The notes under the pieces were generated by a model, which was not told where the DNA came from, ran no database searches, and saw nothing but the letters and a program-made list of their open reading frames with translations. The position numbers and the translations under genes were made by a program. This document shows, piece by piece, positions 85-28,852 of a stretch of 42,018 nucleotides of DNA. Origin of the DNA: Prevotella sp. P5-108 (lineage in GTDB: Bacteria; Bacteroidota; Bacteroidia; Bacteroidales; Paludibacteraceae); assembly GCA_963636305.1 (NCBI GenBank), contig CAVHKB010000001.1, positions 1-42,018 on the forward strand, in the 5' to 3' direction. Position 1 is the stretch's first letter, and each line of letters begins with the position of its first letter.

Positions 85-172
85 GGGGAGAAAATAGGGA
101 AGAGGCAGGGAAGAGGTGGGGGAGAAGTATGGAAGAAGAATGGAAGAGGTAAGGAAGAAGTGGGGTGGGGAA
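85..172. repeat. Eight degenerate 11-bp tandem units, about 90 percent purine on the + strand (core GGAAGAGG)
   Basis: Units: GGGGAGAAAAT AGGGAAGAGGC AGGGAAGAGGT GGGGGAGAAGT ATGGAAGAAGA ATGGAAGAGGT AAGGAAGAAGT GGGGTGGGGAA. Confidence 0.85.
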
Positions 173-213
173 TTGAGCGTATTTGTTATGTTGTATGGAA
201 AGGAAATTTTTTA

Positions 214-221
214 TACCTTTG
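214..221 (+). promoter_or_regulatory. Bacteroidota sigma-A-type -7 element (TAnnTTTG): TACCTTTG
   Basis: Exact TAnnTTTG match 50 nt upstream of ATG 271. Confidence 0.6.
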
Positions 222-270
222 CGTGCAATAGAATGAAAGTGAAAATCAATACGACTTGGAATAGAATACA

Positions 271-1506
271 ATGAAAAAACATCTCTTTATAGTGTGTGCC
301 GTTATGGTTCTGTCGGGCATTTCACCTGCTATGGGCGCCGTATGTAAGACGGGTTTGGAAGTTCTGCGAGAGCAGGGTTTTTCGATATTGGCGGGTAAGC
401 GAGTGGGCTTGTGTACGAATCCGACAGGCATAGACAGTGCTTTGAAATCGACGGTGGATATATTTTACGAGTCACCTTCTGTGAATTTGGTAGCGTTGTT
501 TGCGCCAGAGCATGGCGTTCGTGGAGATGTGTATGCGGGAGACCAAGTGGAGACCTTTACGGACAGCAAGACAGGTGTGCCGGTCTATTCTATATTCGGT
601 AAGACACGCAAACCGACAGCGGATATGCTGCGTGATGTGGATGTGGTGGTGTATGACATACAAGATATCGGTTGCCGTTCGTACACATTCATTTCCACTA
701 TGGGGAACTTGATGGAGGCGTGTGCGGAGTATGACAAAGAGTTTGTGGTGTTGGACCGTCCGAATCCGTTGGGCGGACTGAAGATAGAGGGGAATGTGGT
801 GGAGGAAGGTTACTTCTCGTTTGTATCGCAGTTCAAGATACCCTACTTGTATGCACAGACCTGCGGTGAGTTGGCTACGATGTTGAATGAGGAGAACTAT
901 CTTGGCAGTCGCTGCAGACTTACGGTTGTGAAGATGGAGGGTTGGCACAGGAATATGACTTGGCAGGACACGGGTCTGCCGTGGGTGGCAGCGTCGCCTC
1001 ATATTCCTTTTGCGGAGTCAGCGTTCTTTTATCCTGTTACAGGCATATTCGGAGAGTTGGGTTATTTCAACATAGGCGTAGGATATACTATGCCTTTTGA
1101 ACTGATAGGCGTGCCTTGGGCAGATGCGGACAGTCTTGCTATGGCGTTGAATGCGTTGCAGTTGCCTGGTGTCCGTTTCCGTCCTATTACATACAAGCCT
1201 TTTTATTCGGCTCACAAAGGTGTGTTGTGCGGTGGTGTTCAGATATACCTGACGGATTACGAGCAGGCTCATTTGTCGGATATACAGTTTCTTATCGTAC
1301 AGGAGTTGATGCGGATGTATCCGTACAAGGATGTTTTCGGCTTGTGTGACCAGAGTCGTTTCGGGATGTTTGACAAGGTGTGCGGTAGCCGTCGTATCCG
1401 AGAGTCGTTCGGTGTGCGTTACCGTTGGGAGGATGTGAGGTCGTACTGGTACAAGGATGTGGAATCGTACAGGCAGATGTCGTCAAAATACTATTTTTAT
1501 GATTGA
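271..1506 (+). CDS. Secreted DUF1343-family protein (YbbC/NamZ-like exo-beta-N-acetylmuramidase family)
   Basis: 411-aa ORF with an N-terminal signal peptide (MKKHLFIVCAVMVLSGISPAMG). Family hallmarks GLCTNPTG and FAPEHGVRGD. TACCTTTG -7 box lies 50 nt upstream. Confidence 0.8.
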   Translation: MKKHLFIVCAVMVLSGISPAMGAVCKTGLEVLREQGFSILAGKRVGLCTNPTGIDSALKSTVDIFYESPSVNLVALFAPEHGVRGDVYAGDQVETFTDSKTGVPVYSIFGKTRKPTADMLRDVDVVVYDIQDIGCRSYTFISTMGNLMEACAEYDKEFVVLDRPNPLGGLKIEGNVVEEGYFSFVSQFKIPYLYAQTCGELATMLNEENYLGSRCRLTVVKMEGWHRNMTWQDTGLPWVAASPHIPFAESAFFYPVTGIFGELGYFNIGVGYTMPFELIGVPWADADSLAMALNALQLPGVRFRPITYKPFYSAHKGVLCGGVQIYLTDYEQAHLSDIQFLIVQELMRMYPYKDVFGLCDQSRFGMFDKVCGSRRIRESFGVRYRWEDVRSYWYKDVESYRQMSSKYYFYD

Positions 1507-4318
1507 GCATTTATTACCGACATCTCCCGCCCCGTTGGGCTATGGTGTCGACAGTGGGAGCAAGGACTTCATTCAGCGGTTGACATGGGGAACGGATGCG
1601 GGTTGTTACCGTCTTATCCCTGAAGAGGTGTTCCACCCTGCCGATGAGGGTGAGGTCCGCGAGTTGTTGTCGTATGCCAGGCGCGAGGGGAAGCACATCA
1701 CTTTTCGTGCTGCGGGAACATCGTTGTCGGGTCAGGCTTTGTCGGATTCGTTGTTAGTGGTAGTGGGAAAGCGTTGGGAGAACTATGCAGTGTTGGACGG
1801 AGGGAAGCGTATTTGTATGCAACCGGGCTTGACAGGAGGTCGTGTGAACGAGATATTGGCGCCTTACGGGACTTACTTTACGCCTGATCCGGCATCGCTG
1901 AAGAGTGCGATGGTAGGTGGAATCGTGAACAACAATGCTTCCGGTATGTCTTGTGGCACACACGCTAATTCGTACCGTATGCTTGATAGCGTGCGTATAT
2001 TGTTGGCTGACGGGACCTTGTTGGACACCTCGGACAGCGGTTCGAAGGAGGCATTTCGGTTGTCGCATCGTGAGTTCTTGGAGAAGATTGAGTTGTTGCG
2101 TGACCGGACGCGTGCGAATGCGGCATTGTCGGAACTTATCCGCAGGAAGTATGCGATCAAGAATGTGACGGGTTTGACGATATTGCCTTTTGTGGAGTAT
2201 GATGATCCGTTTGATATAATTGCTCACTTGATAGTGGGAAGCGAGGGGACATTGGCTTTCTTGTCGGAGGTAGTGATGCGTACGGCACCTGTCCCTGGTT
2301 ACAGTGCGTCGGCGTTAATGCTGTTTGCCACGACCGAGATGGCATGCCAAGCGGTTATCCGTCTGAATCGTACGAATGCGGTGTCGGCGGCAGAGTTTTT
2401 TGACAGGAAAGCGATGGCGGTGTTGGAGGACAGTTTTCCGGAGTTGAAAGGCAGACCTGCCGATGCGTCAGCGGTGTTGGTACGGGTGGAGGATTGCAGT
2501 GAGAGCGAGATGGAGCGGAAGATAGAGCAGGTGGAAAAGGTGTTGGAGGGAATAGAGGCAGAAGGCAAGCAGTTTACGACAGACAAGGAGTTGGTAGCCA
2601 AATACTGGGCGATGCGTTCGGGTATATTTCCGGCAGTGGGAGCGACCCGTCGTGTGGGTACGACCTGTTTGATAGAGGATATTGCATTCCCTATAGAGCA
2701 TTTGGCAGAGGCGACAGCGGATTTGCAGGCGTTGTTCAAGGAGCATCGTTATCCGGACGCAGTGATATACGGTCATGCATTGGAGGGTAATTATCATTTT
2801 ATCTTGAATCAATGTTTCAACACGCAGGAGAGTATCGCCCAGTATGACAGTATGATGCGTGCGGTTGTGTCGTTGGTGGTGGACAAGTATCACGGTTCGT
2901 TGAAGGCGGAACATGGGACTGGGCGTAATATGGCGCCTTTTGTACGGAAGGAGTGGGGAGATGATGCGTACGAGTTAATGTGCGAGGTGAAACGGCTATT
3001 CGACCCTGATAATATACTGAATCCGGGAGTTATCTTCAACGAAGACAGTGAGAGTTATTTGCGGTACTTGAAGCCATTGCCGTCGGTTCATCCGATGGTG
3101 GACAAGTGTATAGAGTGCGGTTTCTGTGAAGTGAACTGCGTATCGTGCGGCTTTGCTCTTTCCTCAAGAGGTCGTATCATCGTTCAACGGGAGATTGCCC
3201 GTTTGCTTTCGGAGGGGAAAAAAGGAGAGGCGCAGCGGCTACAGAAGGCGTTCCGACATATCGGTAAGGACCTATGCGCGGGGGACGGGTTGTGTTCTAC
3301 CTCTTGTCCGATAGGGATAAATGTGGGCGAGTACATTCATTTGATTCGAGAACGGGAGTTGTCGGCAACAGGCAGGGCGGCGGGTCGTTTTGCGGCTCAT
3401 CATTTTGCGGCAGTGGGAGGTTCGGTCTCGTCTATCCTATTGATAGCGGGCTTTGCGCAGAAGGTGTTGGGTAACGAGTGGATGTTGAGGGTGTGCAAGG
3501 GGCTACGCTATGCATCGGGTAAGACGATGCCATTGTGGACGCCGTCGATGCCTCACAGGACATGTAGCGGAAAGATAGTGCAATCGGCTTCGGTTCATAC
3601 GGACAAGTCGCTGAAAGTTGTTTATTTCCCATCTTGTCTGAACCAGCGTATGGGGTTGGCTGAAGGTGATCCGTCGAAGCGACCGACGATGGGTGATATG
3701 GTAGAGTTGCTGCATAAGGCGGGCTATGATGTGCTGTTCCCGAAGGATATGAAGCGGTTATGTTGCGGAATGATATGGGAGAGCAAGGGTATGGCAGATG
3801 TTGCGGATGAGAAAGCCTTTGAGTTGGAACAGGCACTGCGAGAGGCAAGCAGTGATGGGCAATATCCTGTGTTGTGCGACCAGAGTCCGTGCCTATATCG
3901 TATGCGCCGCACAATGAAAGGATTGCAACTGTATGAGCCAGCGGAATTTATCGAGCGTTTTCTGTTAAGCAAGTTGGATATTACGCCGTTGGAAGAGCCT
4001 ATCATGCTGCATATTACTTGTTCTATGCGTAAGATGGGGTTGGGAGATACGATATTGCGTGTGGCACGGCAATGCGCTCGGGAGGTGATTGTGCCGTCAG
4101 GCATCGGCTGTTGTGGTTTTGCCGGCGACAAAGGCTTTACAGACCCTGAACTGAACGATTGGGCATTGCGGCACTTGCGTGAGCAGTGTGAAGAGGTGCA
4201 TGCAACGGTAGGTATAAGCAATTCCAGGACTTGCGAGATAGGTCTATCGTCGCATGCAGGTGTTCCGTATATGAATATAGCCTGGCTCGTTAACAAAGTA
4301 AGCAAACCAAGGAAATGA
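1499..4318 (+). CDS. FAD-binding (GlcD/PCMH-type) plus 4Fe-4S and CCG cysteine-rich domain oxidoreductase, YdiJ / D-lactate (D-2-hydroxyacid) dehydrogenase-like
   Basis: ORF track gives 1457..4318. I moved the start to ATG 1499 (MIEHLL...), which overlaps the upstream stop as ATGATTGA. Motifs: FRAAGTSLSGQA (FAD domain), CIECGFCEVNC (4Fe-4S), CCGMIWE and GCCGFAGDKGF (CCG domains). Confidence 0.8.
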   Translation: MIEHLLPTSPAPLGYGVDSGSKDFIQRLTWGTDAGCYRLIPEEVFHPADEGEVRELLSYARREGKHITFRAAGTSLSGQALSDSLLVVVGKRWENYAVLDGGKRICMQPGLTGGRVNEILAPYGTYFTPDPASLKSAMVGGIVNNNASGMSCGTHANSYRMLDSVRILLADGTLLDTSDSGSKEAFRLSHREFLEKIELLRDRTRANAALSELIRRKYAIKNVTGLTILPFVEYDDPFDIIAHLIVGSEGTLAFLSEVVMRTAPVPGYSASALMLFATTEMACQAVIRLNRTNAVSAAEFFDRKAMAVLEDSFPELKGRPADASAVLVRVEDCSESEMERKIEQVEKVLEGIEAEGKQFTTDKELVAKYWAMRSGIFPAVGATRRVGTTCLIEDIAFPIEHLAEATADLQALFKEHRYPDAVIYGHALEGNYHFILNQCFNTQESIAQYDSMMRAVVSLVVDKYHGSLKAEHGTGRNMAPFVRKEWGDDAYELMCEVKRLFDPDNILNPGVIFNEDSESYLRYLKPLPSVHPMVDKCIECGFCEVNCVSCGFALSSRGRIIVQREIARLLSEGKKGEAQRLQKAFRHIGKDLCAGDGLCSTSCPIGINVGEYIHLIRERELSATGRAAGRFAAHHFAAVGGSVSSILLIAGFAQKVLGNEWMLRVCKGLRYASGKTMPLWTPSMPHRTCSGKIVQSASVHTDKSLKVVYFPSCLNQRMGLAEGDPSKRPTMGDMVELLHKAGYDVLFPKDMKRLCCGMIWESKGMADVADEKAFELEQALREASSDGQYPVLCDQSPCLYRMRRTMKGLQLYEPAEFIERFLLSKLDITPLEEPIMLHITCSMRKMGLGDTILRVARQCAREVIVPSGIGCCGFAGDKGFTDPELNDWALRHLREQCEEVHATVGISNSRTCEIGLSSHAGVPYMNIAWLVNKVSKPRK

Positions 4319-4791
4319 ATGCAGATTTTTGCGAGATTGAGCGCAAGTTTTTAGTCAATGACGACTCTTTCAAGACGATGGCAACAGCGAAAAAGGTGCT
4401 ATCGCAAGGCTATCTGTCGCGTGACCCGAAGCGTACGGTGCGCGTACGGATATGCGACGACAAGGGCTATCTAACGATAAAAGGAGAGACGGATGCCGCA
4501 GGGTTGAGCCGTTTTGAATGGGAGAAAGAGATACCCAAAACGGAGGCACAAGCCTTGTTGCGTATATGTTTACCGACGGTGATAGAGAAAGAGCGTTATA
4601 TTGTGCCCTACAAAGGCATGGTATTTGAGGTAGATGTATTCCATGGGATACATGAGGGGCTTGTACTGGCAGAGGTGGAACTACGGTCGGAGACGCAAGC
4701 CGTGACCTTACCTCCTTTTATCGGAAAGGAAGTGACTGGCAATCAGAGATACTACAATTCCTATCTTTCACAGAAGAGTGATAATAACTAA
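4315..4791 (+). CDS. CYTH domain protein (triphosphate tunnel metalloenzyme family)
   Basis: 158 aa with the N-terminal EIERKFLV (ExExK) signature. ATG 4315 overlaps the upstream TGA (ATGA), consistent with translational coupling. Confidence 0.8.
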   Translation: MNADFCEIERKFLVNDDSFKTMATAKKVLSQGYLSRDPKRTVRVRICDDKGYLTIKGETDAAGLSRFEWEKEIPKTEAQALLRICLPTVIEKERYIVPYKGMVFEVDVFHGIHEGLVLAEVELRSETQAVTLPPFIGKEVTGNQRYYNSYLSQKSDNN

Positions 4792-4803
4792 CACAATACA
4801 GCA

Positions 4804-6255
4804 ATGATATTTAACAATACCGATTTAGAACAACTTGCTCAACAGGGTGTATCGGTGGAGCAAGTAGAGCAACAACTGCAATCTTTCCGCACGGGATTTC
4901 CTGCCTTAGACATTGTTTCCGCTGCCACACTCGGTAACGGGATTCTTTGTCCCACCGATGTAGAAGCGAAGTCCTATCTATCTGCGTGGGACGAATATCT
5001 CAAGGAGCAGCATACTATCCTGAAGTTTGTCCCCGCCTCTGGTGCAGCCAGTCGTATGTTCAAGGATTTGTTCGCCTTTCGTGACGGCGGCGAAGAAACT
5101 GACTTCATCAAAGTGTTCTTTGCCCATCTTTCTTCGTTCGCTTTCTATCCCGAGTTGCAACAACGGGTGAACGACAAAGGCGTGCAGAACGATAAGCGTG
5201 CCATCGTGAGTGTTCTCTTGGACGATATGCAATACGGTCATCTGCCTAAAGGATTGCTACTCTTTCACCGCTACCCTGACGAGGCCCGCACACCGGCATT
5301 GGAACATCTTGTGGAGGGTGCGCTCTATGCTGCCAACCAGCAGCGTAATGTTAATCTGCACTTTACGATATCACCCGAGCATCGTTCCCTCTTCGAAAGA
5401 CACATCGCTCAATACCAAGAGGCGTATGCAAGCCGTTTCGATGTACACTATTCCATCTCTTTCTCGGAGCAGAAATCCTCCACCGACACTATCGCTGCGG
5501 ACAGCGACGGTAATCCTTTCCGTGATGCGAATGGCCGTCTGGTCTTCCGTCCCGGAGGACATGGCGCTCTCATCGAGAACCTCGCCGAACAAGATGCAGA
5601 CATCGTATTTCTCAAGAATATCGACAATGTTGTACCCGACCGTTTGAAAGAACCGACGGTTTACTACAAGCGTCTTCTGGCTGGCGTACTCGTGCATATC
5701 CAGCAACAGATTTTCGCCTTTCTCCGTGAGTTGGAGAACCCATGCTCGCAGGAACGCCTCGAAGAGATTCGCGCTTTCATCGAGAACAATCTCTGCTGTC
5801 ATCTGGCAGGTCCTACCACTGCAGCAACGCTTCGCAACAAACTGAATAGGCCTATCCGTGTATGCGGCATGGTTCGTAACTTGGGTGAACCTGGCGGTGG
5901 TCCGTTTCTCGTCAAGAATGCTGATGGCAGTGTCCAATGTCAGATCTTGGAAAGTTCGCAAATAGCCGACAAGTCCCTGATGCAGAAAGCAACACACTTC
6001 AATCCTGTCGATCTCGTATGTGGTCTGCGCGATTATCAAGGCAAGACCTTCCCCCTCAAGCAGTTCGTCGATGCCAATACCGCATTCATCTCGCAGAAGT
6101 CCAAAGACGGACGCGCACTCCAAGCACTCGAACTGCCTGGACTGTGGAACGGTGCTATGGCTGACTGGAATACCTTGTTCGTCGAAGTTCCTATCGAGAC
6201 TTTTAACCCCGTGAAAACCGTTAACGACCTCCTGCGGCCCGAACACAAGGCGTAA
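4804..6255 (+). CDS. DUF4301-family protein, by eye a UDP-sugar pyrophosphorylase (UGP/UAP)-like nucleotidyltransferase fold
   Basis: 483 aa with no signal peptide. Motifs resemble sugar-1-P nucleotidyltransferases: FVPASGAASRMFK (aa 75-87), LPKGLLLFH, RPGGHGAL, FLKNIDNV. Confidence 0.65.
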   Translation: MIFNNTDLEQLAQQGVSVEQVEQQLQSFRTGFPALDIVSAATLGNGILCPTDVEAKSYLSAWDEYLKEQHTILKFVPASGAASRMFKDLFAFRDGGEETDFIKVFFAHLSSFAFYPELQQRVNDKGVQNDKRAIVSVLLDDMQYGHLPKGLLLFHRYPDEARTPALEHLVEGALYAANQQRNVNLHFTISPEHRSLFERHIAQYQEAYASRFDVHYSISFSEQKSSTDTIAADSDGNPFRDANGRLVFRPGGHGALIENLAEQDADIVFLKNIDNVVPDRLKEPTVYYKRLLAGVLVHIQQQIFAFLRELENPCSQERLEEIRAFIENNLCCHLAGPTTAATLRNKLNRPIRVCGMVRNLGEPGGGPFLVKNADGSVQCQILESSQIADKSLMQKATHFNPVDLVCGLRDYQGKTFPLKQFVDANTAFISQKSKDGRALQALELPGLWNGAMADWNTLFVEVPIETFNPVKTVNDLLRPEHKA

Positions 6256-6935
6256 TGCACCTGCCGATGTACAAAGCCTTTTTCTTCGATATGGATGGTG
6301 TGTTGTTCGACTCTATGCCCCACCATGCAAAAGCCTGGGACATGGTCATGAGCAAGTATGCACTCGACTTCAACGCACACGACACCTACCTGCAGGAAGG
6401 ACGCACCGGTCAAGATGTCATCGAAGAGTGTTACCGAAGGAAATATCATACCTCGCCACCCGAGTCATTGGTCTGGCAAATCTATCACGAGAAGACCGAC
6501 TTGTTCCATCAGTTGGGGGAAACACAACCCGTACAAGGCGTAGCAGAGGTGCTGTATTTCCTTAAGAACCTCCCCTCTTCCCCGCAGTTATGGATCGTAA
6601 CGGGTTCGGGACAGCAGACCCTCTTCGCGCAATTGGAGCAATCTTTCCCCTCCGTCTTTCAGCGCGACAAGATGGTCACCGCCTACGATGTCCGTCACGG
6701 CAAACCCAATCCCGAACCCTATCTGTGCGCCTTCCGACAGTCTGGCTGCAAGAAAGAAGAGTGCATGGTCATCGAGAACGCACCCCTCGGCGTCCGCTCT
6801 GGCAAAGGGGCGGGACTCTTCACTGTCGCCGTCAACACAGGCATCCTCAAGCCCGAAGATCTGTCGCACGAAGGTGCCGATAAGGTCTTCAATTCAATGG
6901 CCGACCTACTCCTGTTCCTGAAAACGCTGTTCTGA
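6255..6935 (+). CDS. HAD-IA hydrolase, beta-phosphoglucomutase/sugar-phosphatase family
   Basis: Motif I FFFDMDGVLFDS, then HGKPNPEPY and ENAPLGVRSGKGAG. The start overlaps the upstream stop (TAATG). ATG 6267 (MYKAFFFDMDG) is an alternative start. Confidence 0.8.
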   Translation: MHLPMYKAFFFDMDGVLFDSMPHHAKAWDMVMSKYALDFNAHDTYLQEGRTGQDVIEECYRRKYHTSPPESLVWQIYHEKTDLFHQLGETQPVQGVAEVLYFLKNLPSSPQLWIVTGSGQQTLFAQLEQSFPSVFQRDKMVTAYDVRHGKPNPEPYLCAFRQSGCKKEECMVIENAPLGVRSGKGAGLFTVAVNTGILKPEDLSHEGADKVFNSMADLLLFLKTLF

Positions 6936-7015
6936 AACCATTCCCAATCCATGCAACTGCCCATAACGGAAACGAACAAAACCGATGCACCTCTTGTAGC
7001 ATATCAAAAAAGTTG

Positions 7016-7023
7016 TACCTTTG
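7016..7023 (+). promoter_or_regulatory. -7 element TACCTTTG for nadE
   Basis: Exact TAnnTTTG match 30 nt upstream of ATG 7053. Confidence 0.6.
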
Positions 7024-7052
7024 TTACCATGTCAAACCAATAATATGACCCT

Positions 7053-8966
7053 ATGAATTCACAATCACAAGATTTCGGCTTCGTAAGAGTAGCCGCCGCC
7101 GTTCCTCGTCTGCACTTGGCGGATTGCGCCCGCAATGTCGAAGAAGTGAAAGAACGAATCGACAAAGCCGTTGACGAAGAGGTCGAGATTATATGCTTTC
7201 CCGAATTGGGACTCACAGGCTATACCTGCGCCGACCTCTTCTTCTTGCAACAACTCCAACAAGACGCTCTTGCCGCGCTCGAAGAGGTGTGCAACTACAC
7301 CAAAGGCAAACCCGTCATCGTCATTGTAGGCGCACCTATCAAGGTCGATAACAATCTCTACAACTGTGCTTTCGTCATGACCGACGGCGATGTGTGCGGA
7401 GTGGTGCCGAAGATTAACCTTCCGAACACAGGTGAATTCTACGAGAAACGCTGGTTTACCTCTGGGCGTGTAACTCCCTCCTCCATCGAGTTGTGGAACG
7501 GAGAAGTGCCTTTCGGCTACGACCTCCTCTTCCTCACCAAACGATGCTGTTTCGCTATCGAGTTGTGCGAAGATCTATGGTCACCCCTTCCCCCCTCCAC
7601 TCAACAAGCCATCCAAGGGGCTGAAATCATCTTTAACCTGTCCTCATCCAACTGTGTCGTTGGCAAACATGCTTTCCGACGGCAAATGATAACCCAGCAA
7701 TCACGACGAGTCCATTGCGGATATGTTTACACCTCTTCCGGCATCGGCGAAAGTACCACCGACCTCGTCTTCTCGGGAAGCACCTATATCGCCGAGAACG
7801 GAACAATGCTCGAAGAAGGCGAACGCTTCCTGCAGGAGTCTTCTATGGTCGTTTCCGAAATCGACATCGAACGACTGCGAACCGATAGGCAACGCAATAC
7901 GAACTTCACCGACGATAAACGCGGACAGTATCGCAAAATATATGTGGCTCCTCTCGAAACCGCACAACCGGTTCACCCTATCCATCGCATCTTCTCTGCT
8001 CATCCGTTCCTACCTAAACCCGAAGACGGTAAATCCTATGTCGATGATGTCTTGAGCATACAGACCTGCGGATTGGCACAACGATGGAAACATACACACG
8101 CTCAAACGCTCATTCTTGGCGTGTCGGGCGGACTCGACTCCACACTCGCGCTCCTCGTCTGTGCGCTCACGGCTGACCGACTGGGCTACAGCCGTAGGCA
8201 GATAATAGGAGTCACTATGCCCGGCTTTGGAACAACCGACCGCACACACGACAACGCCGTCGAACTCATGGACCAGTTAGGCATCTCCTCCTACGAAATC
8301 CCTATCCGAAACGCTGTCATGCAGCATTTCCTCGACATCGACCATAATCCCGATGTCCACGACATCACCTACGAGAACGCACAGGCGCGCGAAAGAACAC
8401 AAATACTCATGGACCTCGCCAACAAATACAATGGCTTGGTCGTAGGTACGGGCGACCTTAGCGAACTGGCACTCGGTTGGGCAACCTACAATGCCGACCA
8501 TATGTCCATGTATGCCGTCAACGCAGGCATCCCGAAGACCCTCGTACGCTTCTTGGTCGAATATCAAGCGAAAAACGCTTTCTCCGAACAGATCCAGAAT
8601 ACCCTCAACGATATCCTCTCTACACCCGTATCACCCGAACTGCTGCCCGCCGACGACGAAGGGAATATCCAACAAAAAACCGAAGACAAAGTCGGACCAT
8701 ACGAACTCAACGACTTCTTCATCTACTATTTCTTGCGCTATGGCTTCTCGCACACAAAGATCGAATACATGGCTCGGTTGGCTTTCGTCGAACAGTACTC
8801 CAACGAAGAAATCGCACACTGGCTCAATATATTCTTCTCTCGGTTCTATCAGCAGCAATACAAACGCTCCTGTATGCCCGATGGACCTAAGGTGGTAGAT
8901 GTCACACTTTCCCCGCGCGGCGACTGGCGCATGCCAAGCGATGCCAATCCGCCCAAAATGGAATAA
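7053..8966 (+). CDS. nadE: Glutamine-dependent NAD+ synthetase (N-terminal CN-hydrolase domain plus C-terminal NAD synthetase)
   Basis: 637 aa with a nitrilase-like N-terminal half (FPELGLTGYTC, ELCEDLW) and the PP-loop GVSGGLDST in the C-terminal half. TACCTTTG -7 box at 7016-7023. Confidence 0.9.
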   Translation: MNSQSQDFGFVRVAAAVPRLHLADCARNVEEVKERIDKAVDEEVEIICFPELGLTGYTCADLFFLQQLQQDALAALEEVCNYTKGKPVIVIVGAPIKVDNNLYNCAFVMTDGDVCGVVPKINLPNTGEFYEKRWFTSGRVTPSSIELWNGEVPFGYDLLFLTKRCCFAIELCEDLWSPLPPSTQQAIQGAEIIFNLSSSNCVVGKHAFRRQMITQQSRRVHCGYVYTSSGIGESTTDLVFSGSTYIAENGTMLEEGERFLQESSMVVSEIDIERLRTDRQRNTNFTDDKRGQYRKIYVAPLETAQPVHPIHRIFSAHPFLPKPEDGKSYVDDVLSIQTCGLAQRWKHTHAQTLILGVSGGLDSTLALLVCALTADRLGYSRRQIIGVTMPGFGTTDRTHDNAVELMDQLGISSYEIPIRNAVMQHFLDIDHNPDVHDITYENAQARERTQILMDLANKYNGLVVGTGDLSELALGWATYNADHMSMYAVNAGIPKTLVRFLVEYQAKNAFSEQIQNTLNDILSTPVSPELLPADDEGNIQQKTEDKVGPYELNDFFIYYFLRYGFSHTKIEYMARLAFVEQYSNEEIAHWLNIFFSRFYQQQYKRSCMPDGPKVVDVTLSPRGDWRMPSDANPPKME

Positions 8967-10789: not shown

Positions 10790-10795
10790 ACAAAA

Positions 10796-20833: not shown

Positions 20834-23140
20834 TCAGTCGTCAAACCCTGAATCATCCGCCCTCAAACGCTTCAACTGCGTATTAGGAAAATAATGCGCC
20901 AATATCTCTTTGTAACTGTATCCCTGCGTCGCCATAACTGCGGCACCAATTTGACACAACCCCACACCATGACCCCAACCTGCACCATACAGTGTAACCC
21001 CAACTTCCTCACTGTCTGCGTCCTGCTCCCTCTTGACTACAAACGCCGAACTATACAGATGCGACGGCGATAGCCATTTCCGTATTTCCAACTCCTTACC
21101 TACTGTCAACCGTCGCTTACTCCCCACTATCTCCAACTCGTATATGCGACCCGACTCACCCCTCTTCAATGGTATCAACGATTCTATCTCACCAAAATCA
21201 ATACCGCTCTTCTCTCGTACCAATGCCGATAGTTCCGCCACGCTGTAATGTACCTTCCACCGATAAAAATCCTGTGTCTCTTGGTCGTAGGTATTCAGTA
21301 CTTGCGACAAAATAGCATGGTCCTTCGTATTGCAAAAAGCCTCTGGAGATGACATAATCCATGCTTCCGCCTCACTCTCTCGTGTCAAGTCCGGTAGAAC
21401 AGCCTCCCGCGCATCTCTGATAGGGCGCAGATAAGGGTGACTCTCTTCTGCCCAGCAGTGTTCAAAACGCTCCGTCGCACCTCCGCACGACTTATAAAAA
21501 CGCGCATCACATATATGGTTCTCCCATGTAAGCACCTCACCCCAAGTAGCCTTCACCGCTTCTTCTACCGACTTACTGCTTTGGCGGGTAATACCCTGAT
21601 AACGCTGACAATGGTCGTCGGCGCATACATCAAAATGCTTGTGAGCATCACGCTCATACCAACGGATATGGCGCGTAGGTGTGTCCTCCCCGCATACTGC
21701 GTTCCCGCTACCTCCCTCCAACATCGGACGAAGCACCCAACTGCGTGAAATAACCGCATGTGCCTTCAATAGTTCTATATCACTTGCAGCATTCATCTCA
21801 CTCGAAATCACACTCTGCAGATAATCCTCCACCCCAGTCACATTAATAGCCGTTAAATGGTCCTCCTCCACAATTATCTCCAATCCACCTGCGAATCTCT
21901 GTTCTTCTTTACGCTCCCAATGAAAGTGAATGCCTATTACCACATCATGCAACCAGTAGGTGGAATATGCCTCCACCCCAGTAAAAAGCAATCTGTCATA
22001 TAACTTGCCCCTGAAACGAATCTTGCCGTCCTCTAACTCCACACTCTGTTCCCCTGTATATCGACTACCGTCCATACACAGCATATAGTCGCTTTCAAAA
22101 CGGAAGCGTATGCAAGGACTGTACAGCACGCCTACTCGAAGCGTCTTTTGTTGCTTTTCTATCATATTGTCTGTCATTTTAATCTCATCACTGCCTAACG
22201 AAACCTCTCTCACAATCTTCTCCAACAACTCTCCCGTCAACCTCCTGTAACTCTCCGAATCTGCCACAATGGCTATACCACTCATCTCCACACATGCAGG
22301 CGAAATAAGTATTTGAGCCTCTCCTTGCGCAAAGAAACACTTCGGACGCGACTCACTCCGCAGAATAACAAGCAATGCATACTCCTCCCGCTCTGCATCA
22401 TACCACGCAACCAAATTCATTCTCGGCTCCCACTCCGACCTCTCTCGCCCGTGCAATGCACCATAAATACGCAAAAACTGCTCCTTGACACACTCTCTCT
22501 TCAAACCCGCTACATAATACGCCGAACGAGCATAACGGCAAACTTTATAAACCGTCACACCATCCTCTCTCCTCAGCAACTCAATGCCTTCACCTCTTTC
22601 GCACATCCGTTGCAGCGGTAACGCATTATACGGAATCGCTTGAAAATGAAAATGATCAGGTGCCGACGCCCCACAATAAGGACCGTTATAAAATAGGGTG
22701 AAGTGTGGCAACGCCTCACACAACACAAACATATCATCTATATGAGGCAATATAGCCTGATGCTCATGCCTCGCTGACGAAATGGTATAATGTTCCTCAA
22801 AAATAGGAAACGGGTTCACTCGAATACAGTAACACCCCTCTTCTCCCTCATGCAAAGGCGACTGCCAATAGGTTGTCAACTGATTCTCTTCTAACCCGCT
22901 CGGACATAAAAAGCACGCTCGCCGTCGCAAACTCGCTGCATCTACCTCTGCCATAACCGACCTGACGCGCTCTCGGTTGAAGCGTATCTCTACCTCCAAC
23001 CCGTCACAAACACACCGCTTCTTTTCAATGTGCCTCAACTGCATATAATGAGCAGATGCCCGCCCGCAAGAGGCTATCTCGCAAGCAAACATCTGCCGTA
23101 TTCTCTCCTCCAAAGGAGAAACAGAATCAATGCTCATCAT
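20834..23140 (-). CDS. Fusion protein: N-terminal DUF4922/HIT(GalT)-like nucleotidyltransferase-phosphorylase domain plus C-terminal SpoIID/LytB-like domain
   Basis: Continuous ORF. Start set at ATG 23140, which overlaps the GT2 stop as ATGA. HFHFQ (HxHxQ) lies at 22640-22654. SpoIID-type motifs are VISSEM (Glu codon 21797-21799), CADDHCQRYQG and GAGWGHGVGLCQIGA. No signal peptide or TM segment. Confidence 0.7.
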   Translation of the reverse strand: MMSIDSVSPLEERIRQMFACEIASCGRASAHYMQLRHIEKKRCVCDGLEVEIRFNRERVRSVMAEVDAASLRRRACFLCPSGLEENQLTTYWQSPLHEGEEGCYCIRVNPFPIFEEHYTISSARHEHQAILPHIDDMFVLCEALPHFTLFYNGPYCGASAPDHFHFQAIPYNALPLQRMCERGEGIELLRREDGVTVYKVCRYARSAYYVAGLKRECVKEQFLRIYGALHGRERSEWEPRMNLVAWYDAEREEYALLVILRSESRPKCFFAQGEAQILISPACVEMSGIAIVADSESYRRLTGELLEKIVREVSLGSDEIKMTDNMIEKQQKTLRVGVLYSPCIRFRFESDYMLCMDGSRYTGEQSVELEDGKIRFRGKLYDRLLFTGVEAYSTYWLHDVVIGIHFHWERKEEQRFAGGLEIIVEEDHLTAINVTGVEDYLQSVISSEMNAASDIELLKAHAVISRSWVLRPMLEGGSGNAVCGEDTPTRHIRWYERDAHKHFDVCADDHCQRYQGITRQSSKSVEEAVKATWGEVLTWENHICDARFYKSCGGATERFEHCWAEESHPYLRPIRDAREAVLPDLTRESEAEAWIMSSPEAFCNTKDHAILSQVLNTYDQETQDFYRWKVHYSVAELSALVREKSGIDFGEIESLIPLKRGESGRIYELEIVGSKRRLTVGKELEIRKWLSPSHLYSSAFVVKREQDADSEEVGVTLYGAGWGHGVGLCQIGAAVMATQGYSYKEILAHYFPNTQLKRLRADDSGFDD

Positions 23141-24564
23141 TCCTTTCGGGCATTCATGGCTATACGAGCCTTCAACTCCCAAGTGCGTATCCTGTCTTTA
23201 TAGAGGTTGTTCTTGTTCATAGCCTCTATATCACAGTTCGCGTCTGAATTGTCGTCCCAACGACGGCAGTTGTAAACCACTTCATAGATACGACCAATCT
23301 GATACTCCCTGCTCACGCGCAATCCCACTGCATAGTCCTCCCCATATTTGGTGGTAGGGAAATTAATCTTGCGCAATAGCGGAGTATAGAACCCTCGAGG
23401 CGCACCCAATCCATTGATACGGAGTGCATTATTCCTGCCGTTATCTGGTGTCCACTCTCTGTGGTCTATCACGCCAGGAGGAAGAATGTTCCCGTCAAAG
23501 TCTGTCATACGATAGGTACCAACCACCATAGCGCAGTCCTGTTCATGAAAGGCATCTATAAACTTCTGAACCGTATGCTCGTCATAATAGGTGTCGTCCG
23601 AATCCAACTGAATGGCAAAACGACCGCATTTCGGGTGGTGTAGGGCTACATTCCAGTTTCCGCCTATCGCGTGCCAACTCTTATCCTGAGCAATATAAAT
23701 CAAGTTCTCATGACCCTCCGACACAATCTCTCGGATAATATCAACTGTACCGTCTTCAGAATTGTCATCCACAACAATCACGTTGTATTTATACTGCTTG
23801 TCCACCACCTGGTTCAATGCACTGCGTATCGCCGTGCCTATCGTGCGCACCCTGTTCTTGCACGGTATCACTACCGATGCCTCATACTCAAATCCACCCC
23901 CCTGCAAATCTATATCCTTGAATCGGGGAACAAGATATCCACCTATATCCTTCAAGTGTTGCGTGCAGGCTGCCTCCATCTCTATCTGAACACCACGGTT
24001 CTTGGGGTCCACATAGTCAAACAGTTTCTCCCCCGACTTGCGTGTATCCAACTCAACATCGTAATACAAATACTCGTTGATATGCTCCAATGCCCCGTGC
24101 TGACTAACTTTCAACCGCAAATCATACAGTCCCGCATAAGCATAATCCTTGTCCATTCTCTCTACCGCTGCTTTCAGCGCACTCGTGCGATAAAACAACA
24201 CCGAACCGAAATCAAAGTCATCTCGCAATGCGCCCATCTGGTAATCTATCACAGGAGCATTGCTGCGCTCCTCGCCCACCTGGTTAAAGTGGTCCGAGTA
24301 AACCATTGCGGCACCGCTGTCTTCTATCAACGCCTCCATTCGCTCCAAGGCAAACAGCACAAACGATAGGGTGGTGTACTTGGTGTAAATCAAAGTATAA
24401 GGAGTTGTCGTGTGCGAGGCAATAAAGCGCATATTCGCACTACTGCGCATATCTCCCTTCAGGAAATGTATCTCGTTAACGAGCGGTTGTGCCTGCAAAT
24501 TGGCTACGGTCTGTTTCACTTGTTCCTCACTCTGGAACGGAATAAAGCAATCAATGTTTTTCAT
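23137..24564 (-). CDS. Soluble family-2 glycosyltransferase with an additional degenerate GT-A-like N-terminal half
   Basis: Start at ATG 24564 (MKNIDCFIPF). The canonical GT2 half carries VVIPCKNR...VIVVDDNSEDGT...QLDSDD. The N-terminal ~230 aa has a GT-A-like pattern (CFIPF ... MVYSDH). No TM segments. Confidence 0.75.
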   Translation of the reverse strand: MKNIDCFIPFQSEEQVKQTVANLQAQPLVNEIHFLKGDMRSSANMRFIASHTTTPYTLIYTKYTTLSFVLFALERMEALIEDSGAAMVYSDHFNQVGEERSNAPVIDYQMGALRDDFDFGSVLFYRTSALKAAVERMDKDYAYAGLYDLRLKVSQHGALEHINEYLYYDVELDTRKSGEKLFDYVDPKNRGVQIEMEAACTQHLKDIGGYLVPRFKDIDLQGGGFEYEASVVIPCKNRVRTIGTAIRSALNQVVDKQYKYNVIVVDDNSEDGTVDIIREIVSEGHENLIYIAQDKSWHAIGGNWNVALHHPKCGRFAIQLDSDDTYYDEHTVQKFIDAFHEQDCAMVVGTYRMTDFDGNILPPGVIDHREWTPDNGRNNALRINGLGAPRGFYTPLLRKINFPTTKYGEDYAVGLRVSREYQIGRIYEVVYNCRRWDDNSDANCDIEAMNKNNLYKDRIRTWELKARIAMNARKE

Positions 24565-24610
24565 TCTTATGATATGTTTTTTACGGATTATATGGCTATA
24601 ATCCTGTTGT

Positions 24611-26593
24611 TTACAAAATATGATACTGCACAAAGGCCTCTATCGCCTCATAATTGGCTAAACCCAACTGTGCATACAACTCCGCTGTGGCATGATTCCG
24701 GTCCTCTGCACGCTGCCAGAACAAACGCTCATCATTCCCCATAAACGGCGCTGACTCCATCTGACTCTGATGTTTCAATATCGTATTACGCTTGAAACGC
24801 AACTCTTCAGGCGACATCGGAACTGCCATCTCTATCAAATCCACCTCCCATTCCATCCAAGCACCTCTGTACATCCAAATGCGGCACTTCTGCAACCATT
24901 TCTCTTTGTCCTTCAGTTCGTCTATCGCAGCCAACACTGCGTCCAAACATACCTTGTGCGTACCATGCGGGTCCGCTAAGTCACCGGCAACAAACATCTC
25001 GTCTGGCTTTATCTCTACCAATAGACGCTTCACAATATCAATGTCCTTTTGCGACAAATCACCCTTCTTTATCGTCCCCGTCTCATAGAACGGCAGATTC
25101 AAAAAGTGTATGTGAGAGGTCGGCAATCCCATATGACGGCATGCCGCTGTCGCTTCACCCCTTCGGATAAGTGCCTTGATATCCAATATCTCACGAGTAT
25201 CTCTGTCGTCCTTTTTCTCGTTGAACAAGTAATGAGTGTACTCGTTATACTTCTCCTCAATCACCTTGTCCTCCGGGCTGTGCATCTGACCGAAACCGCG
25301 CATGAAGTCCATAAAACGAACCACCTCGTCATCACACACCGCAATACAACCGCTCGTCTCGTAGGCTATATGCACATCATGACCTTGCTTAATCAAACGG
25401 GCAAATGTGCCACCCATCGAAATCACATCATCATCCGGATGCGGCGAAAATATCAACACTTTCTTTGGATATGGCTTTGCACGCTCAGGACGGTTACTGT
25501 CGTCCGCGTTGGGCTTACCACCCGGCCAACCTGTAATCGTGTGCTGCAAATCGTTGAAGATTTTTATGTTGCAGTTATAAGCCGAACCATAAATAGTTAT
25601 CAACTCGCTCAAACCGTTCTCGTTGTAGTCTTTGTTCGTCAGTTTCAGTATAGGCTTGCCCGTTTGCTGGCACAACCATACTATGGCACGCCGTGTCAAC
25701 TGGTCGTCCCACTCGCAAGAGGTCAACAACCACGGACACTTTAGTCTTGTCAACTGACCCGCTGCCGATAAGTCCAACACTACCTCCGCATTCGAATGTA
25801 ACTGCAAAGCAGAGGCAGGACACGACGGGTTACACTGCTTCTCCACTGCCGCACGAATCTGTGCCGACTTGTGTTCTCCCCAAGCAACCATAACTACCCG
25901 CTTCGCCCGAAGTATAGTACCCAAACCCATCGTTATGGCACACATCGGCACCTGCTCAACCGAACCGAACAGATTGGCGGCATCATTCTTCGATACATTG
26001 TCCAACACCACCAAACGGGTCGGACTGTTAAACTGCGTACCAGGTTCGTTGAAACCGATATTGCCGCCGCGACCGATTCCCAACAACTGAAAATCAACTC
26101 CGCCCATATCTTGCAACTTCTGCTCATAATCCATACAAGCATTCAGTATATTGCTCTTCTCCTGCGTGCCGTCTATCGTGAACACATTCTCTGCCTGAAT
26201 GTCAACCTGGTCCAACAACTGCTCTTTCAACTGACCAAAACAACCCTGCAGATTGTCTGTCAACGGGTAGTATTCAAACAGGTTGAATATAACCACATTC
26301 CTGAAACTCAGCCCCTCCTCCTTATGCAAACGCACCAATTCTTCGAACACATCAGTCATGCTCCTGCCTGCAACAAGCGACAAGATGGCAAACGAATGTT
26401 TCTTCTGCTTCGCCAGAATAACTTCCGCTATCTGACGCGCTACATACTTCGCACCTTCCTGTGCACTCGAACAAATATGCGTGTGGAGAAGTTCAAAACG
26501 GGTCAAACGCGACAACTCAAATACATCGTCCGTTTGGTAAAGTTTCTTCGCTATGTGAGTCAGCGAAATCTGTGAACTTAAATTAGTTCTCAT
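24611..26593 (-). CDS. Fusion protein: NagB-like sugar-phosphate deaminase/isomerase-fold domain plus PIG-L/LmbE-family deacetylase domain
   Basis: Start at ATG 26593 (MRTNLSSQ). NagB-like blocks are VVIFNLFEYYP and LGIGRGGNIGFNEPG. LmbE motifs are IFSPHPDDDVISMGG (HPDDD at 25427-25441) and DPHGTH. TACCTTTG -7 box at 26671-26678. Confidence 0.75.
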   Translation of the reverse strand: MRTNLSSQISLTHIAKKLYQTDDVFELSRLTRFELLHTHICSSAQEGAKYVARQIAEVILAKQKKHSFAILSLVAGRSMTDVFEELVRLHKEEGLSFRNVVIFNLFEYYPLTDNLQGCFGQLKEQLLDQVDIQAENVFTIDGTQEKSNILNACMDYEQKLQDMGGVDFQLLGIGRGGNIGFNEPGTQFNSPTRLVVLDNVSKNDAANLFGSVEQVPMCAITMGLGTILRAKRVVMVAWGEHKSAQIRAAVEKQCNPSCPASALQLHSNAEVVLDLSAAGQLTRLKCPWLLTSCEWDDQLTRRAIVWLCQQTGKPILKLTNKDYNENGLSELITIYGSAYNCNIKIFNDLQHTITGWPGGKPNADDSNRPERAKPYPKKVLIFSPHPDDDVISMGGTFARLIKQGHDVHIAYETSGCIAVCDDEVVRFMDFMRGFGQMHSPEDKVIEEKYNEYTHYLFNEKKDDRDTREILDIKALIRRGEATAACRHMGLPTSHIHFLNLPFYETGTIKKGDLSQKDIDIVKRLLVEIKPDEMFVAGDLADPHGTHKVCLDAVLAAIDELKDKEKWLQKCRIWMYRGAWMEWEVDLIEMAVPMSPEELRFKRNTILKHQSQMESAPFMGNDERLFWQRAEDRNHATAELYAQLGLANYEAIEAFVQYHIL

Positions 26594-27168: not shown

Positions 27169-28026
27169 ATGATTTTAATCGCTGACAGTGGTTCTACCAA
27201 AACCACATGGACACTCATGGCTGCTAACAGCCAAACTTCCGAGTTCTCAATGGACGGTATCAATCCTTTCTACCAGACTTCCGACGCCATTAAGAACTCT
27301 ATCGTCACACAACTCCTTCCCCAACTCTCCCACCTACTCTGGGCGGGGACTATAACTGACATCTATTTCTATGGTGCAGGATGTACACCCGAGAAAACCA
27401 AATTTGTCATATCTGCACTCGAAGGCTCGTTCAAAACTGCCAAAGCCCATGTCGAAAGTGATATGGTCGGTGCAGCAAGAGGACTGCTCGGGCGGACGCA
27501 AGGTATCGCCTGCATTCTTGGTACAGGCTCCAACTCCTGCCTCTACGACGGAGAAAAAATCATCAAGAATGTACCCGCACTCGGCTTTATTCTCGGCGAC
27601 GAAGGCAGCGGTGCTGTACTTGGCAAACGCCTCGTGGCAGATGTACTCAAAAATCAGTTGCCCGAACATATCAAAAACAAATTTCTTCAGCAATACAACC
27701 TCACGCAGGCGGAAATCATAGAGAATGTCTATCGCAAACCTTTCCCCAACCGATACCTCGCCTCTCTTTCCAAGTTCGCTGCCGAAAACATACAGGAAGA
27801 ATCCATCTACAACCTCGTTTACGAGCATTTCCGTCAGTTCGTCATCCGTAACCTCAAGCAGTATCCTTCTCTGCCCGTCGGATTTATCGGCTCCATTGCT
27901 TACTACTATGCCGATGTTCTCCGCAAGGTCATGAACGACAACAATATGCAAGTCGCACAAATACTCCAGTCGCCCATGCCAGGACTCGTGAAGTATCATG
28001 CACAAGATGCCAAACCGACTAACTGA
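27169..28026 (+). CDS. BadF/BadG/BcrA/BcrD-type ASKHA sugar kinase (GlcNAc / MurNAc kinase, MurK-like)
   Basis: 285 aa with MILIADSGSTKTTW (phosphate-1), ILGTGSNS (phosphate-2) and ILGDEGSGAVLG (adenosine motif). It sits directly upstream of murQ. Confidence 0.7.
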   Translation: MILIADSGSTKTTWTLMAANSQTSEFSMDGINPFYQTSDAIKNSIVTQLLPQLSHLLWAGTITDIYFYGAGCTPEKTKFVISALEGSFKTAKAHVESDMVGAARGLLGRTQGIACILGTGSNSCLYDGEKIIKNVPALGFILGDEGSGAVLGKRLVADVLKNQLPEHIKNKFLQQYNLTQAEIIENVYRKPFPNRYLASLSKFAAENIQEESIYNLVYEHFRQFVIRNLKQYPSLPVGFIGSIAYYYADVLRKVMNDNNMQVAQILQSPMPGLVKYHAQDAKPTN

Positions 28027-28033
28027 TAACGAT

Positions 28034-28852
28034 ATGTTTGCAAAAATAACCGAACAGCCCTCCCTACACGATAACCTCGACCAGAAATCTGTACACGAAC
28101 TATTGGTCGAAATGAACGAAGAGGACAAAAAAGTACCTCTCGCCGTCGAGAAAGCAATACCGCAGATAACCAAACTCGTCGAACAAATCGTACCACGAAT
28201 GAAACAGGGAGGACGAATCTTCTACCTTGGAGCAGGCACTTCAGGACGACTCGGCGTACTCGACGCAAGCGAAATACCACCTACCTTCGGTATGCCTCCT
28301 TCACTCGTCGTAGGACTCATCGCCGGTGGTGACACCGCCCTCCGTAATCCCGTCGAGAAAGCCGAAGACGACCTCGAAAGAGGATGGCAGGACCTCCAGA
28401 AATACAACATCAATTCCTCCGACATTCTCATCGGTATCGCCGCTTCAGGCACAACGCCCTATGTCATAGGCGCACTCCGACACGCACGCGAACAGGGAAT
28501 ACTCACCGCTTCTGTCTCCTGCAATCCCGACTCGCCCGTCGCAGCCGAAGCCGACATACCTATCGAGGCAATAGTAGGTCCCGAATTCGTTACAGGTAGC
28601 ACACGGCTCAAATCCGGCACCGCACAAAAACTCATCTGCAACATGATAACCACCACTACCATGATACAACTCGGACGAGTCAAAGGCAATCGGATGGTCA
28701 ATATGCAACTGACCAACAAGAAACTTGTCGACAGAGGAACCCGTATGCTCGTCGACGAACTCGGCATCGACTACGAACAGGCAAAGCATCTCCTGCTCAT
28801 TCACGGCTCTGTCAAAGACGCACTCGACGCCTGGCAACAACAGAAAAATTAA
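28034..28852 (+). CDS. murQ: N-acetylmuramic acid 6-phosphate etherase
   Basis: SIS-domain protein with YLGAGTSGRLGVLDASEIPPTFG, GIAASGTTPYV and the TGSTRLKSGTAQK blocks typical of MurQ. Start chosen at ATG 28034, 8 nt after the kinase stop. Confidence 0.85.
   Translation: MFAKITEQPSLHDNLDQKSVHELLVEMNEEDKKVPLAVEKAIPQITKLVEQIVPRMKQGGRIFYLGAGTSGRLGVLDASEIPPTFGMPPSLVVGLIAGGDTALRNPVEKAEDDLERGWQDLQKYNINSSDILIGIAASGTTPYVIGALRHAREQGILTASVSCNPDSPVAAEADIPIEAIVGPEFVTGSTRLKSGTAQKLICNMITTTTMIQLGRVKGNRMVNMQLTNKKLVDRGTRMLVDELGIDYEQAKHLLLIHGSVKDALDAWQQQKN

Follow-up and report, generated by a model that had tools for sequence, protein, structure and literature searches.

The DNA analysed here comprises 42,018 nucleotides (nt) of Prevotella sp. 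P5-108, positions 1-42,018 of the forward strand of contig CAVHKB010000001.1 (the window; its genome is referred to as G000). Near its start lie five tightly packed genes for a NamZ muramidase homologue, a flavin adenine dinucleotide (FAD) and Fe-S dehydrogenase of 939 amino acids (aa), a CYTH protein, a DUF4301 protein and a protein of the haloacid dehalogenase (HAD) family. Drawing on gene anatomy, family and fold assignments, synteny, gene fusions and co-occurrence, we lean with modest confidence towards a real operon that joins a peptidoglycan-salvage unit (unit A, the first two genes) to a nucleotidyl-transfer unit (unit B, the last three) in a Bacteroidales lineage that seems to rely on scavenged N-acetylmuramic acid (MurNAc). 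A single pathway may span all five genes. The array and its boundaries are the following.

214..221, plus strand: TACCTTTG, a candidate promoter box of the Bacteroidetes -7 type that would serve all five genes (TAnnTTTG match, 50 nt ahead of the namZ ATG)
271..1506, plus strand: namZ1-type gene for a predicted GH171 exo-beta-N-acetylmuramidase (NamZ_N and NamZ_C domains, N-terminal signal peptide)
1499..4318, plus strand: gene for a Dld-II-type FAD/Fe-S 2-hydroxyacid (probably D-lactate) dehydrogenase, 939 aa (domains, synteny, MurQ co-occurrence)
4315..4791, plus strand: gene for a CYTH protein, a putative triphosphate-tunnel metalloenzyme, 158 aa (Pfam CYTH, EIERKF motif)
4804..6255, plus strand: DUF4301 gene, 483 aa, predicted nucleotidyltransferase with a UDP-sugar-pyrophosphorylase fold (PF14134, AlphaFold 2 model, Foldseek)
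6255..6935, plus strand: gene for a putative BT2127-type HAD-family inorganic pyrophosphatase, 226 aa (NF053653, alignment with 3QU2)
7016..8966, plus strand: operon boundary, with a second TACCTTTG -7 box (7016-7023) and nadE (7053-8966; NAD synthase NF002730, 845 bits)

The five genes lie on one strand, leave no room for internal promoters or terminators and have a single promoter element upstream. The four junctions that the preliminary description had given were reproduced exactly: an 8-nt overlap between namZ and the dehydrogenase gene (ATGATTGA at 1499-1506), a 4-nt ATGA overlap between the latter and the CYTH gene (4315-4318), a 12-nt gap ahead of DUF4301 (4792-4803) and a 1-nt overlap within TAATG ahead of the HAD gene (6253-6257). 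An alternative ATG for the dehydrogenase open reading frame (ORF) is found at 1457. On the plus strand of positions 1-7100, TAnnTTTG matches only twice, at 214-221, the sole box preceding the array, as had been proposed, and at 7016-7023, 30 nt 5′ of nadE. With its tight junctions, its single -7 box and the separate box of nadE, the array looks from the DNA like a single transcription unit that ends where the promoter of nadE begins the next; the earlier idea of one coupled unit under one promoter box thus gains support. The identical octamer TACCTTTG recurs at 214, 7016, 27099 and 28940 (plus strand) and 26671 (minus strand), each time ahead of a gene or operon, five in all in the window. Since these include murK, a SusC gene and a minus-strand gene starting at 26701, the octamer behaves like a genuine promoter element. 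It is also usable as a local promoter signature in the window. Terminator-like hairpins followed by T runs were at chance level in the array region (8 found, 8.1 expected), as were the counts of a sigma-70 promoter scan.

Of 401 Bacteroidota genomes sampled, 63 carry DUF4301. Its neighbourhoods were surveyed at 60 of these loci across the phylum (±9 kb) and at 80 Bacteroidales loci from species-representative genomes (±10 kb). The near-identical array at L093 encodes proteins 89-95% identical to those of the window; only these two have nadE 3′ of the array. A protein-database search brought up metagenome contigs with the order NamZ-FAD/FeS-CYTH-DUF4301-HAD, the CYTH and DUF4301 genes being separate or fused, with the same tight junctions and entirely other flanks. 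The array is kept at L228 (DUF4301 identity 84%, with the dcw cluster as its neighbour), L230 and L231 (79%), L234 (72%), L235 (70%) and L237 (69%), whereas L233 (80%) has DUF362-CYTH-DUF4301-HAD without the NamZ-dehydrogenase unit. Because the same junctions persist while the flanks change, the five genes have evidently stayed together within the lineage of the window (DUF4301 identities of 69-95%), which does not hold for Bacteroidota at large. Throughout this lineage the pyrophosphatase gene follows DUF4301, and CYTH::DUF4301 fusions recur in sister lineages, among the closest DUF4301 relatives (P0003, P0005, P0008, P0010 and P0026; 68-84% identity), which argues that CYTH and DUF4301 work together.

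The first protein of the array is a NamZ family member well above the Pfam gathering scores (NamZ_N 276 bits, cut-off 26.9; NamZ_C 139 bits, cut-off 25) and the only NamZ found in G000. It matches Bacteroides fragilis NamZ1 (PDB 4K05) at 577 bits and NamZ2 (4JJA) at 175 bits, and by these matches it falls into the NamZ1 type, with clades defined as in bioRxiv 10.1101/2021.12.02.470905. In Tannerella forsythia, the NamZ1 clade enzyme is an exo-disaccharidase that mainly releases the disaccharide of N-acetylglucosamine (GlcNAc) and MurNAc, and NamZ2 releases MurNAc (same source). The muramidase family proposed for this gene therefore stands, but the release of MurNAc itself does not fit the characterised NamZ1 member, whose main product is GlcNAc-MurNAc.

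The second protein carries FAD_binding_4, FAD-oxidase_C, Fer4_8 and CCG domains in a single chain, all above the Pfam cut-offs. This combination of FAD_binding_4, FAD-oxidase_C, 4Fe-4S dicluster and CCG defines the Dld-II D-lactate dehydrogenases (PMC4481167, PMC4117512), and Shewanella SO_1521 and Helicobacter pylori HP1222 are likewise single chains of about 940 aa, a likeness of architecture. Its best PDB matches are flavoprotein subunits of lactate and glycolate oxidoreductases, with the lactate dehydrogenase subunit LctD at the top. It is probably a Dld-II-type enzyme, with D-lactate as the likely substrate. A source of D-lactate within the cell would be the following pair, encoded 21 kb from the array.

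27169..28852, plus strand: murK-murQ, predicted MurNAc kinase and MurNAc-6-P etherase, proposed D-lactate source (PDB matches and TIGR00274)

MurQ (27998-28852) scores 321 bits with the NCBIfam equivalog TIGR00274, above its cut-off of 302, and MurK (27169-28026) matches PDB 8OQW and 8OW9 at 285-286 bits. MurQ releases D-lactate from MurNAc-6-P, and D-lactate built up in a Corynebacterium engineered for growth on MurNAc (PMC6165865). No LctP lactate permease was found in G000, G119, G528 or G299, so an internal source of lactate is likely. Known dld-II genes, in contrast, stand beside a lactate permease and a regulator (lldP-dld-II, PMC6731338), whereas the gene in the window sits in a cell-wall salvage operon.

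Frequencies were taken from one fixed set of 201 Bacteroidales genomes, in which the Dld-II-like enzyme and the NamZ1 subgroup each occur in 21, MurQ in 40, the BT2127-type pyrophosphatase in 36 and CYTH in 120. MurQ is carried by 17 of the 21 genomes with an orthologue of the 939-aa enzyme versus 23 of the 180 without (odds ratio 29, Fisher p = 1.6e-10); related genomes are not independent in this test, although the positives come from 18 families. Of the 11 other sampled genomes that have both NamZ1 and the FAD/FeS gene, 5 have them side by side. In G528 and G299, from two other families, the order is GT2 (a family 2 glycosyltransferase), DUF4922-SpoIID, an AmpG-like transporter of the major facilitator superfamily (MFS), NamZ1, FAD/FeS, an HGSNAT-like MurT, a BadF-type kinase MurK, MurQ and a beta-lactamase-fold protein; in L173 and L174, murK-murQ come directly after the Dld-II-like gene. 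The location of the dehydrogenase inside a MurNAc operon elsewhere and its co-occurrence with MurQ lend independent comparative support to the link between NamZ, a D-lactate-dehydrogenase-like enzyme and MurQ that the preliminary description had drawn.

These layouts resemble the T. forsythia operon Tanf_08345-08385 (Gtf, Gtf, LytB, AmpG, NamZ1, MurT, MurK, MurQ): G528 and G299 hold the same families in the same order, and the window holds the same genes in dispersed form. They differ from the operon described in Tannerella (bioRxiv 10.1101/2021.12.02.470905) in that a Dld-II-type dehydrogenase is inserted after NamZ1 in G528 and G299, and in that the window's lineage has NamZ1 and the dehydrogenase detached from MurT-MurK-MurQ and joined to CYTH-DUF4301-pyrophosphatase. 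G483 has the same salvage operon without the dehydrogenase. Solitary dehydrogenase genes often have neighbours from the same system (a Metallophos/pyrroloquinoline-quinone-propeller protein, a beta-lactamase-fold protein) and otherwise unrelated ones. Another piece of the dispersed cluster is also in the window.

20834..24633, minus strand: DUF4922-SpoIID and GT2 genes, a further part of the scattered peptidoglycan-salvage gene set (Pfam)

Homologues of these DUF4922-SpoIID/GT2 genes stand directly upstream of AmpG-NamZ1 in L173, L174 and L178.

Turning to unit B, the CYTH protein scores 50.3 bits against a Pfam cut-off of 23.2, and its N-terminal ExExK motif, EIERK at residues 7-11, aligns with that of NE1496 (NeuTTM), the nearest solved structure (2FBL and 3TYP; E = 2.8e-15 for 2FBL). 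NE1496, a Nitrosomonas protein, is a specific tripolyphosphatase. The CYTH protein thus resembles the NeuTTM triphosphatase, and any specificity assigned to it would come from this resemblance alone.

DUF4301 matches a single Pfam family (PF14134, 694 bits), with no match to UDPGP (PF01704), and a phmmer search against the PDB returned no sequence match even at E = 10. Its AlphaFold 2 model, built on 34 sequences, has a mean predicted local distance difference test score of 90.7, and the top 45 Foldseek matches of this model in the PDB are all UGP, UAP or USP enzymes (E from 2e-11 to 1e-7, template-modelling score 0.40-0.54, about 0.5, over ~510 columns). The loop PASGAA(S)RMFK and the motifs GHG and NIDN are wholly or nearly invariant in the 34 sequences. 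The model therefore gives DUF4301 a UDP-sugar-pyrophosphorylase fold and makes it a predicted nucleotidyltransferase, bearing out its earlier listing as a UGP/UAP-like candidate. It is like the eukaryote-type UGP, UAP1/AGX1 and USP enzymes in its modelled whole-length fold and glycine-rich nucleotide-binding loop, and unlike them in its identity of only 9-14%, in lacking a Pfam UDPGP match and in being fused, depending on the lineage, to CYTH, an AAA_28 kinase or a Glycos_transf_4 (GT4) transferase.

The HAD protein passes NCBIfam NF053653, the BT2127 inorganic diphosphatase (255.5 bits, cut-off 245), and matches BT2127 itself (PDB 3QU2) at 205 bits with D12, D14, E48, Y77, VTGSGQ, GKPNPEPY and IENAPLG all kept. 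Among these are both Asp of the nucleophile motif, the Glu and Tyr of the cap, and the motifs with Thr, Lys and ENA. The Glu and Tyr of the cap exclude larger substrates. As a beta-phosphoglucomutase (TIGR01990, 61.2 bits, cut-off 189.4) or as the MurNAc-6-P phosphatase MupP (NF009696, 39.3 bits, cut-off 359) the protein fails, and the NCBIfam sugar-phosphatase model failed as well. From the equivalog pass, the marker residues and the failed models, it is by its sequence a BT2127-type inorganic pyrophosphatase, not the sugar-phosphate mutase or phosphatase for which it had first been taken; the likeness to BT2127 (PDB 3QU2/3QX7) extends to catalytic, metal-binding and cap residues. BT2127 is an inorganic pyrophosphatase of Bacteroides thetaiotaomicron (PMC11210485). 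Its type comes after lysS-gpsA-pgi in most Bacteroidales, unlike in the window, where its gene is translationally coupled to that of a predicted pyrophosphate-forming nucleotidyltransferase. Of the sugar-1-phosphate activation module once proposed for the last three genes, the nucleotidyltransferase fold of DUF4301 survives and the sugar-phosphate role of the HAD protein does not. It is plausible, if unproven, that the products of these three genes act on a sugar phosphate derived from peptidoglycan.

The physiology of the host is relevant here. Neither MurA nor MurB was found in G000 (89% complete) or in the complete (100%) genome G119 of the same genus; both are present in G075, G231 and G528, and MurB was found in 196 of the 201 Bacteroidales. 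G000 has an AmgK-like kinase and MurU-like transferase pair (contig C42, 2753-4856). The apparent lack of MurA and MurB, which T. forsythia shares, together with this pair, suggests that the host resembles T. forsythia in depending on scavenged MurNAc and may be a gut MurNAc auxotroph of the Tannerella type. Conversely, G075 keeps MurA and MurB and is without NamZ1, dehydrogenase and MurQ.

We hypothesize the following scheme, for which we infer all the catalytic activities. In unit A, the periplasmic NamZ1-type exo-muramidase would trim glycan strands free of peptides; once the products are taken up, MurK as kinase and MurQ as etherase would give GlcNAc-6-P and D-lactate, and the Dld-II-type FAD/Fe-S dehydrogenase would oxidise D-lactate to pyruvate, with electrons passing to the quinone pool. 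In unit B, DUF4301 would couple a nucleoside triphosphate to a phosphorylated small molecule, releasing pyrophosphate, and the CYTH protein (as a NeuTTM-like tri- or pyrophosphate hydrolase) and the BT2127-type pyrophosphatase would destroy phosphoanhydride by-products and so pull the reaction forward. A more specific version holds that CYTH, DUF4301 (often fused) and the pyrophosphatase form a new route re-activating a peptidoglycan-derived sugar phosphate (GlcNAc-1-P, MurNAc-1-P or related) to a nucleotide sugar in MurNAc-auxotrophic Bacteroidales, its genes sharing a transcript with those of a NamZ1 glycan trimmer and of a D-lactate dehydrogenase dedicated to removing the lactyl group; we offer it tentatively and consider it rather unlikely in this full form. 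A proposed combination of kinase, nucleotidyltransferase and pyrophosphate removal that returns scavenged wall sugar to synthesis would be like the AmgK-MurU shortcut of Pseudomonas putida and T. forsythia, and unlike it in that a separate AmgK/MurU-like pair already exists in G000 and in that MurU is of the RmlA/GlmU type, not of the UDPGP fold.

Several observations weigh against a functional operon of units A and B, and the competing explanations draw on them. In none of the 60 phylum-level loci does any array partner adjoin DUF4301, and among the 80 Bacteroidales loci only L093 (full array) and L091 (DUF4301-HAD) show partners; the gene order that the preliminary description expected to be conserved in Bacteroidota is thus conserved within the window's lineage and not across the phylum. 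The array is split in G119, with NamZ-FAD/FeS-CYTH on contig 11 and DUF4301, a 176-aa gene and HAD on contig 1, and in G075 the array genes are 18-95 kb apart. In other Bacteroidales, DUF4301 stands beside relA, dnaK or purT; the recurrent neighbours there (relA/spoT, DnaK, a DUF1573-like lipoprotein and purT) are divergent genes of the housekeeping kind that offer no clue to function. CYTH is found elsewhere in a cluster of phosphate porin, lamin-tail-domain protein and anion symporter, and the pyrophosphatase gene elsewhere in Bacteroidales follows lysS-gpsA-pgi or precedes aroB; in view of these contexts both look like general phosphoanhydride-handling enzymes recruited here. In most other Bacteroidota each of the five genes has a neighbourhood of its own, unrelated to those of the others, so that units A and B (as well as CYTH) could be unrelated housekeeping genes juxtaposed once in the window's lineage and kept as an operon that is young or whose shared regulation is harmless, that is, co-expressed without sharing a pathway. 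We find this somewhat unlikely, since the tight overlaps persist down to 69-70% DUF4301 identity despite wholly changed flanks, and since two further independent layouts place CYTH::DUF4301 or DUF4301 beside MurNAc-salvage genes.

The first of these layouts is at L232 (7163-9917), where the gene of a MurK orthologue runs 8 nt into the start of a CYTH::DUF4301 fusion gene. This orthologue is 61% identical to the product of 27169-28026 in the window and scores 275 bits against the T. forsythia MurK structure; no MurQ, NamZ or HAD genes lie near the locus. In the second (L154, L157, L158 and L164), DUF4301 is divergent to a gene for a large protein followed by GT2, after which L154, L158 and L164, unlike the truncated L157, also have a second GT-like gene and DUF4922; these genes have their homologues in the cytoplasmic module of the salvage system. 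On the strength of these two layouts, a peptidoglycan-derived sugar phosphate as the DUF4301 substrate in the window's lineage is a serious possibility, though still a doubtful one. On the opposite side, the MurU-like gene present in G000 means that DUF4301 is not needed for UDP-MurNAc synthesis, and the candidate role of DUF4301 as a missing MurU or GlmU was rejected as a necessity because the AmgK/MurU-like pair exists. The two best GlmU-like matches are the GDP-heptose genes hddC/gmhB, and the bifunctional GlmU equivalog was found in 0 of 5 genomes examined, which makes that comparison uninformative.

The substrate of the dehydrogenase is a further point at issue. Four genomes carry the FAD/FeS enzyme without MurQ, and Dld-II relatives differ in stereospecificity, Campylobacter jejuni Cj1585c being reported as an L-lactate dehydrogenase (PMC4117512). 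The best NCBIfam matches of the 939-aa enzyme are GlcD (200.7 bits) and YdiJ (159.5 bits), and its PDB relatives include glycolate oxidase and D-2-hydroxyglutarate dehydrogenase, so that oxidation of another 2-hydroxyacid could be considered: D-2-hydroxyglutarate as by YdiJ, glycolate as by GlcDEF, or L-lactate. Both equivalog models are missed widely, however: YdiJ D-2-hydroxyglutarate dehydrogenase (NF049975) has a cut-off of 1350 bits and matches residues 22-515 only, and glycolate oxidase GlcD (TIGR00387) has a cut-off of 567.9 bits. With LctD as the top PDB match and the gene inserted in a MurNAc operon and co-occurring with MurQ, we judge these other substrates unlikely and keep D-lactate as the probable one.

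A third explanation moves unit B out of cell-wall metabolism. In a large class-level family with Flavobacteriaceae-type neighbourhoods, DUF4301 comes after PnuC and an AAA_28 (NadR-kinase-like, NadR-RNK-like) kinase; this arrangement, which also counts against the main reading, is found in 25 genomes, in about 15 of which the kinase is fused. DUF4301, CYTH and the pyrophosphatase could then serve riboside-vitamin salvage (nicotinamide riboside/NAD or thiamine) by adenylylating nicotinamide mononucleotide or thiamine phosphate, with the cell-wall neighbours being incidental. Consistent with it, the window has nadE 0.1 kb and pnuC 5.4 kb further downstream, L230 has pnuC at a downstream distance of 6 kb, and in Prevotella sp. 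oral taxon 376 (L126, 11524-12627) a 367-aa fusion of an AAA_28 P-loop kinase-like domain to CYTH starts 3 nt after DUF4301. None of the 80 Bacteroidales loci has an adjacent PnuC or AAA_28 gene, however, and the only AAA_28 gene of G000 is on another contig. Searches for riboswitches covered the window, five loci with related arrays and six PnuC-kinase-DUF4301 loci and found none; no Rfam family attained its gathering score, Flavo-1 small RNAs being the sole matches there. In addition, a Paludibacteraceae metagenome-assembled genome (MAG) has a 902-aa ORF (L169, 8729-11437) that fuses a Glycos_transf_4 (WecA/MraY-like) membrane transferase to DUF4301, which hints at a UDP-sugar product. We thus regard vitamin salvage as quite improbable and continue to prefer the joining of a salvage unit and a nucleotidyl-transfer unit. 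The common theme of the DUF4301 contexts is a kinase, a nucleotidyltransferase and by-product removal, with a substrate that may differ between lineages.

We found no paper describing the insertion of a Dld-II enzyme in a salvage operon or a CYTH::DUF4301-pyrophosphatase unit. The sole full-text match for DUF4301 was a rumen metaproteome, and MurQ together with D-lactate dehydrogenase yielded nothing beyond one engineering paper and a preprint of no relevance, on glucokinase regulatory protein. Peptidoglycan scavenging is the survival route of MurNAc-auxotrophic Bacteroidales such as Tannerella and probably an important nutrient flow in the gut. With a D-lactate dehydrogenase among the salvage genes, the carbon balance of MurNAc breakdown would be closed, and the apparent loss of MurA and MurB in a gut lineage would extend auxotrophy of the Tannerella type beyond the oral cavity. 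Fusion of CYTH to DUF4301, together with the coupling to a pyrophosphatase, offers a first concrete biochemical handle on DUF4301 and on small bacterial CYTH proteins, both of them poorly understood; if true, the re-activation route would supply a first substrate for the large DUF4301 family and tie bacterial CYTH proteins to a definite partner in metabolism.

Some minor observations can be added. The array locus L093 (CAVEFV010000023.1) is deposited as 'Firmicutes bacterium CAG:95' with a gene content of Bacteroidales, and the bin is probably mislabelled. In L091 (11709-12974), L234, L235 and L237, the pyrophosphatase has a C-terminal HD phosphohydrolase domain fused to it (421-437 aa). The CYTH cluster mentioned above is found in 6-7 of 20 Bacteroidales loci (L195, L196, L198, L200, L203 and L205) and consists of a phosphate-selective porin, a lamin-tail-domain protein, a 213-aa protein, CYTH and a Na/sulfate-type anion symporter; its conservation suggests a role of CYTH in (poly)phosphate handling. 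Two sets of GDP-heptose genes (hddA-like kinase, gmhA and a fused hddC/gmhB) are present in G000, on contig C62 at 8289-11178 (L238, 3289-6178) and on contig C206 at 1152-3952. Finally, in a Cyclobacteriaceae MAG (L166, 10001-11990) the DUF4301 ORF runs into about 14 tandem copies of HWSLVTG, probably a read-through into a DNA repeat.

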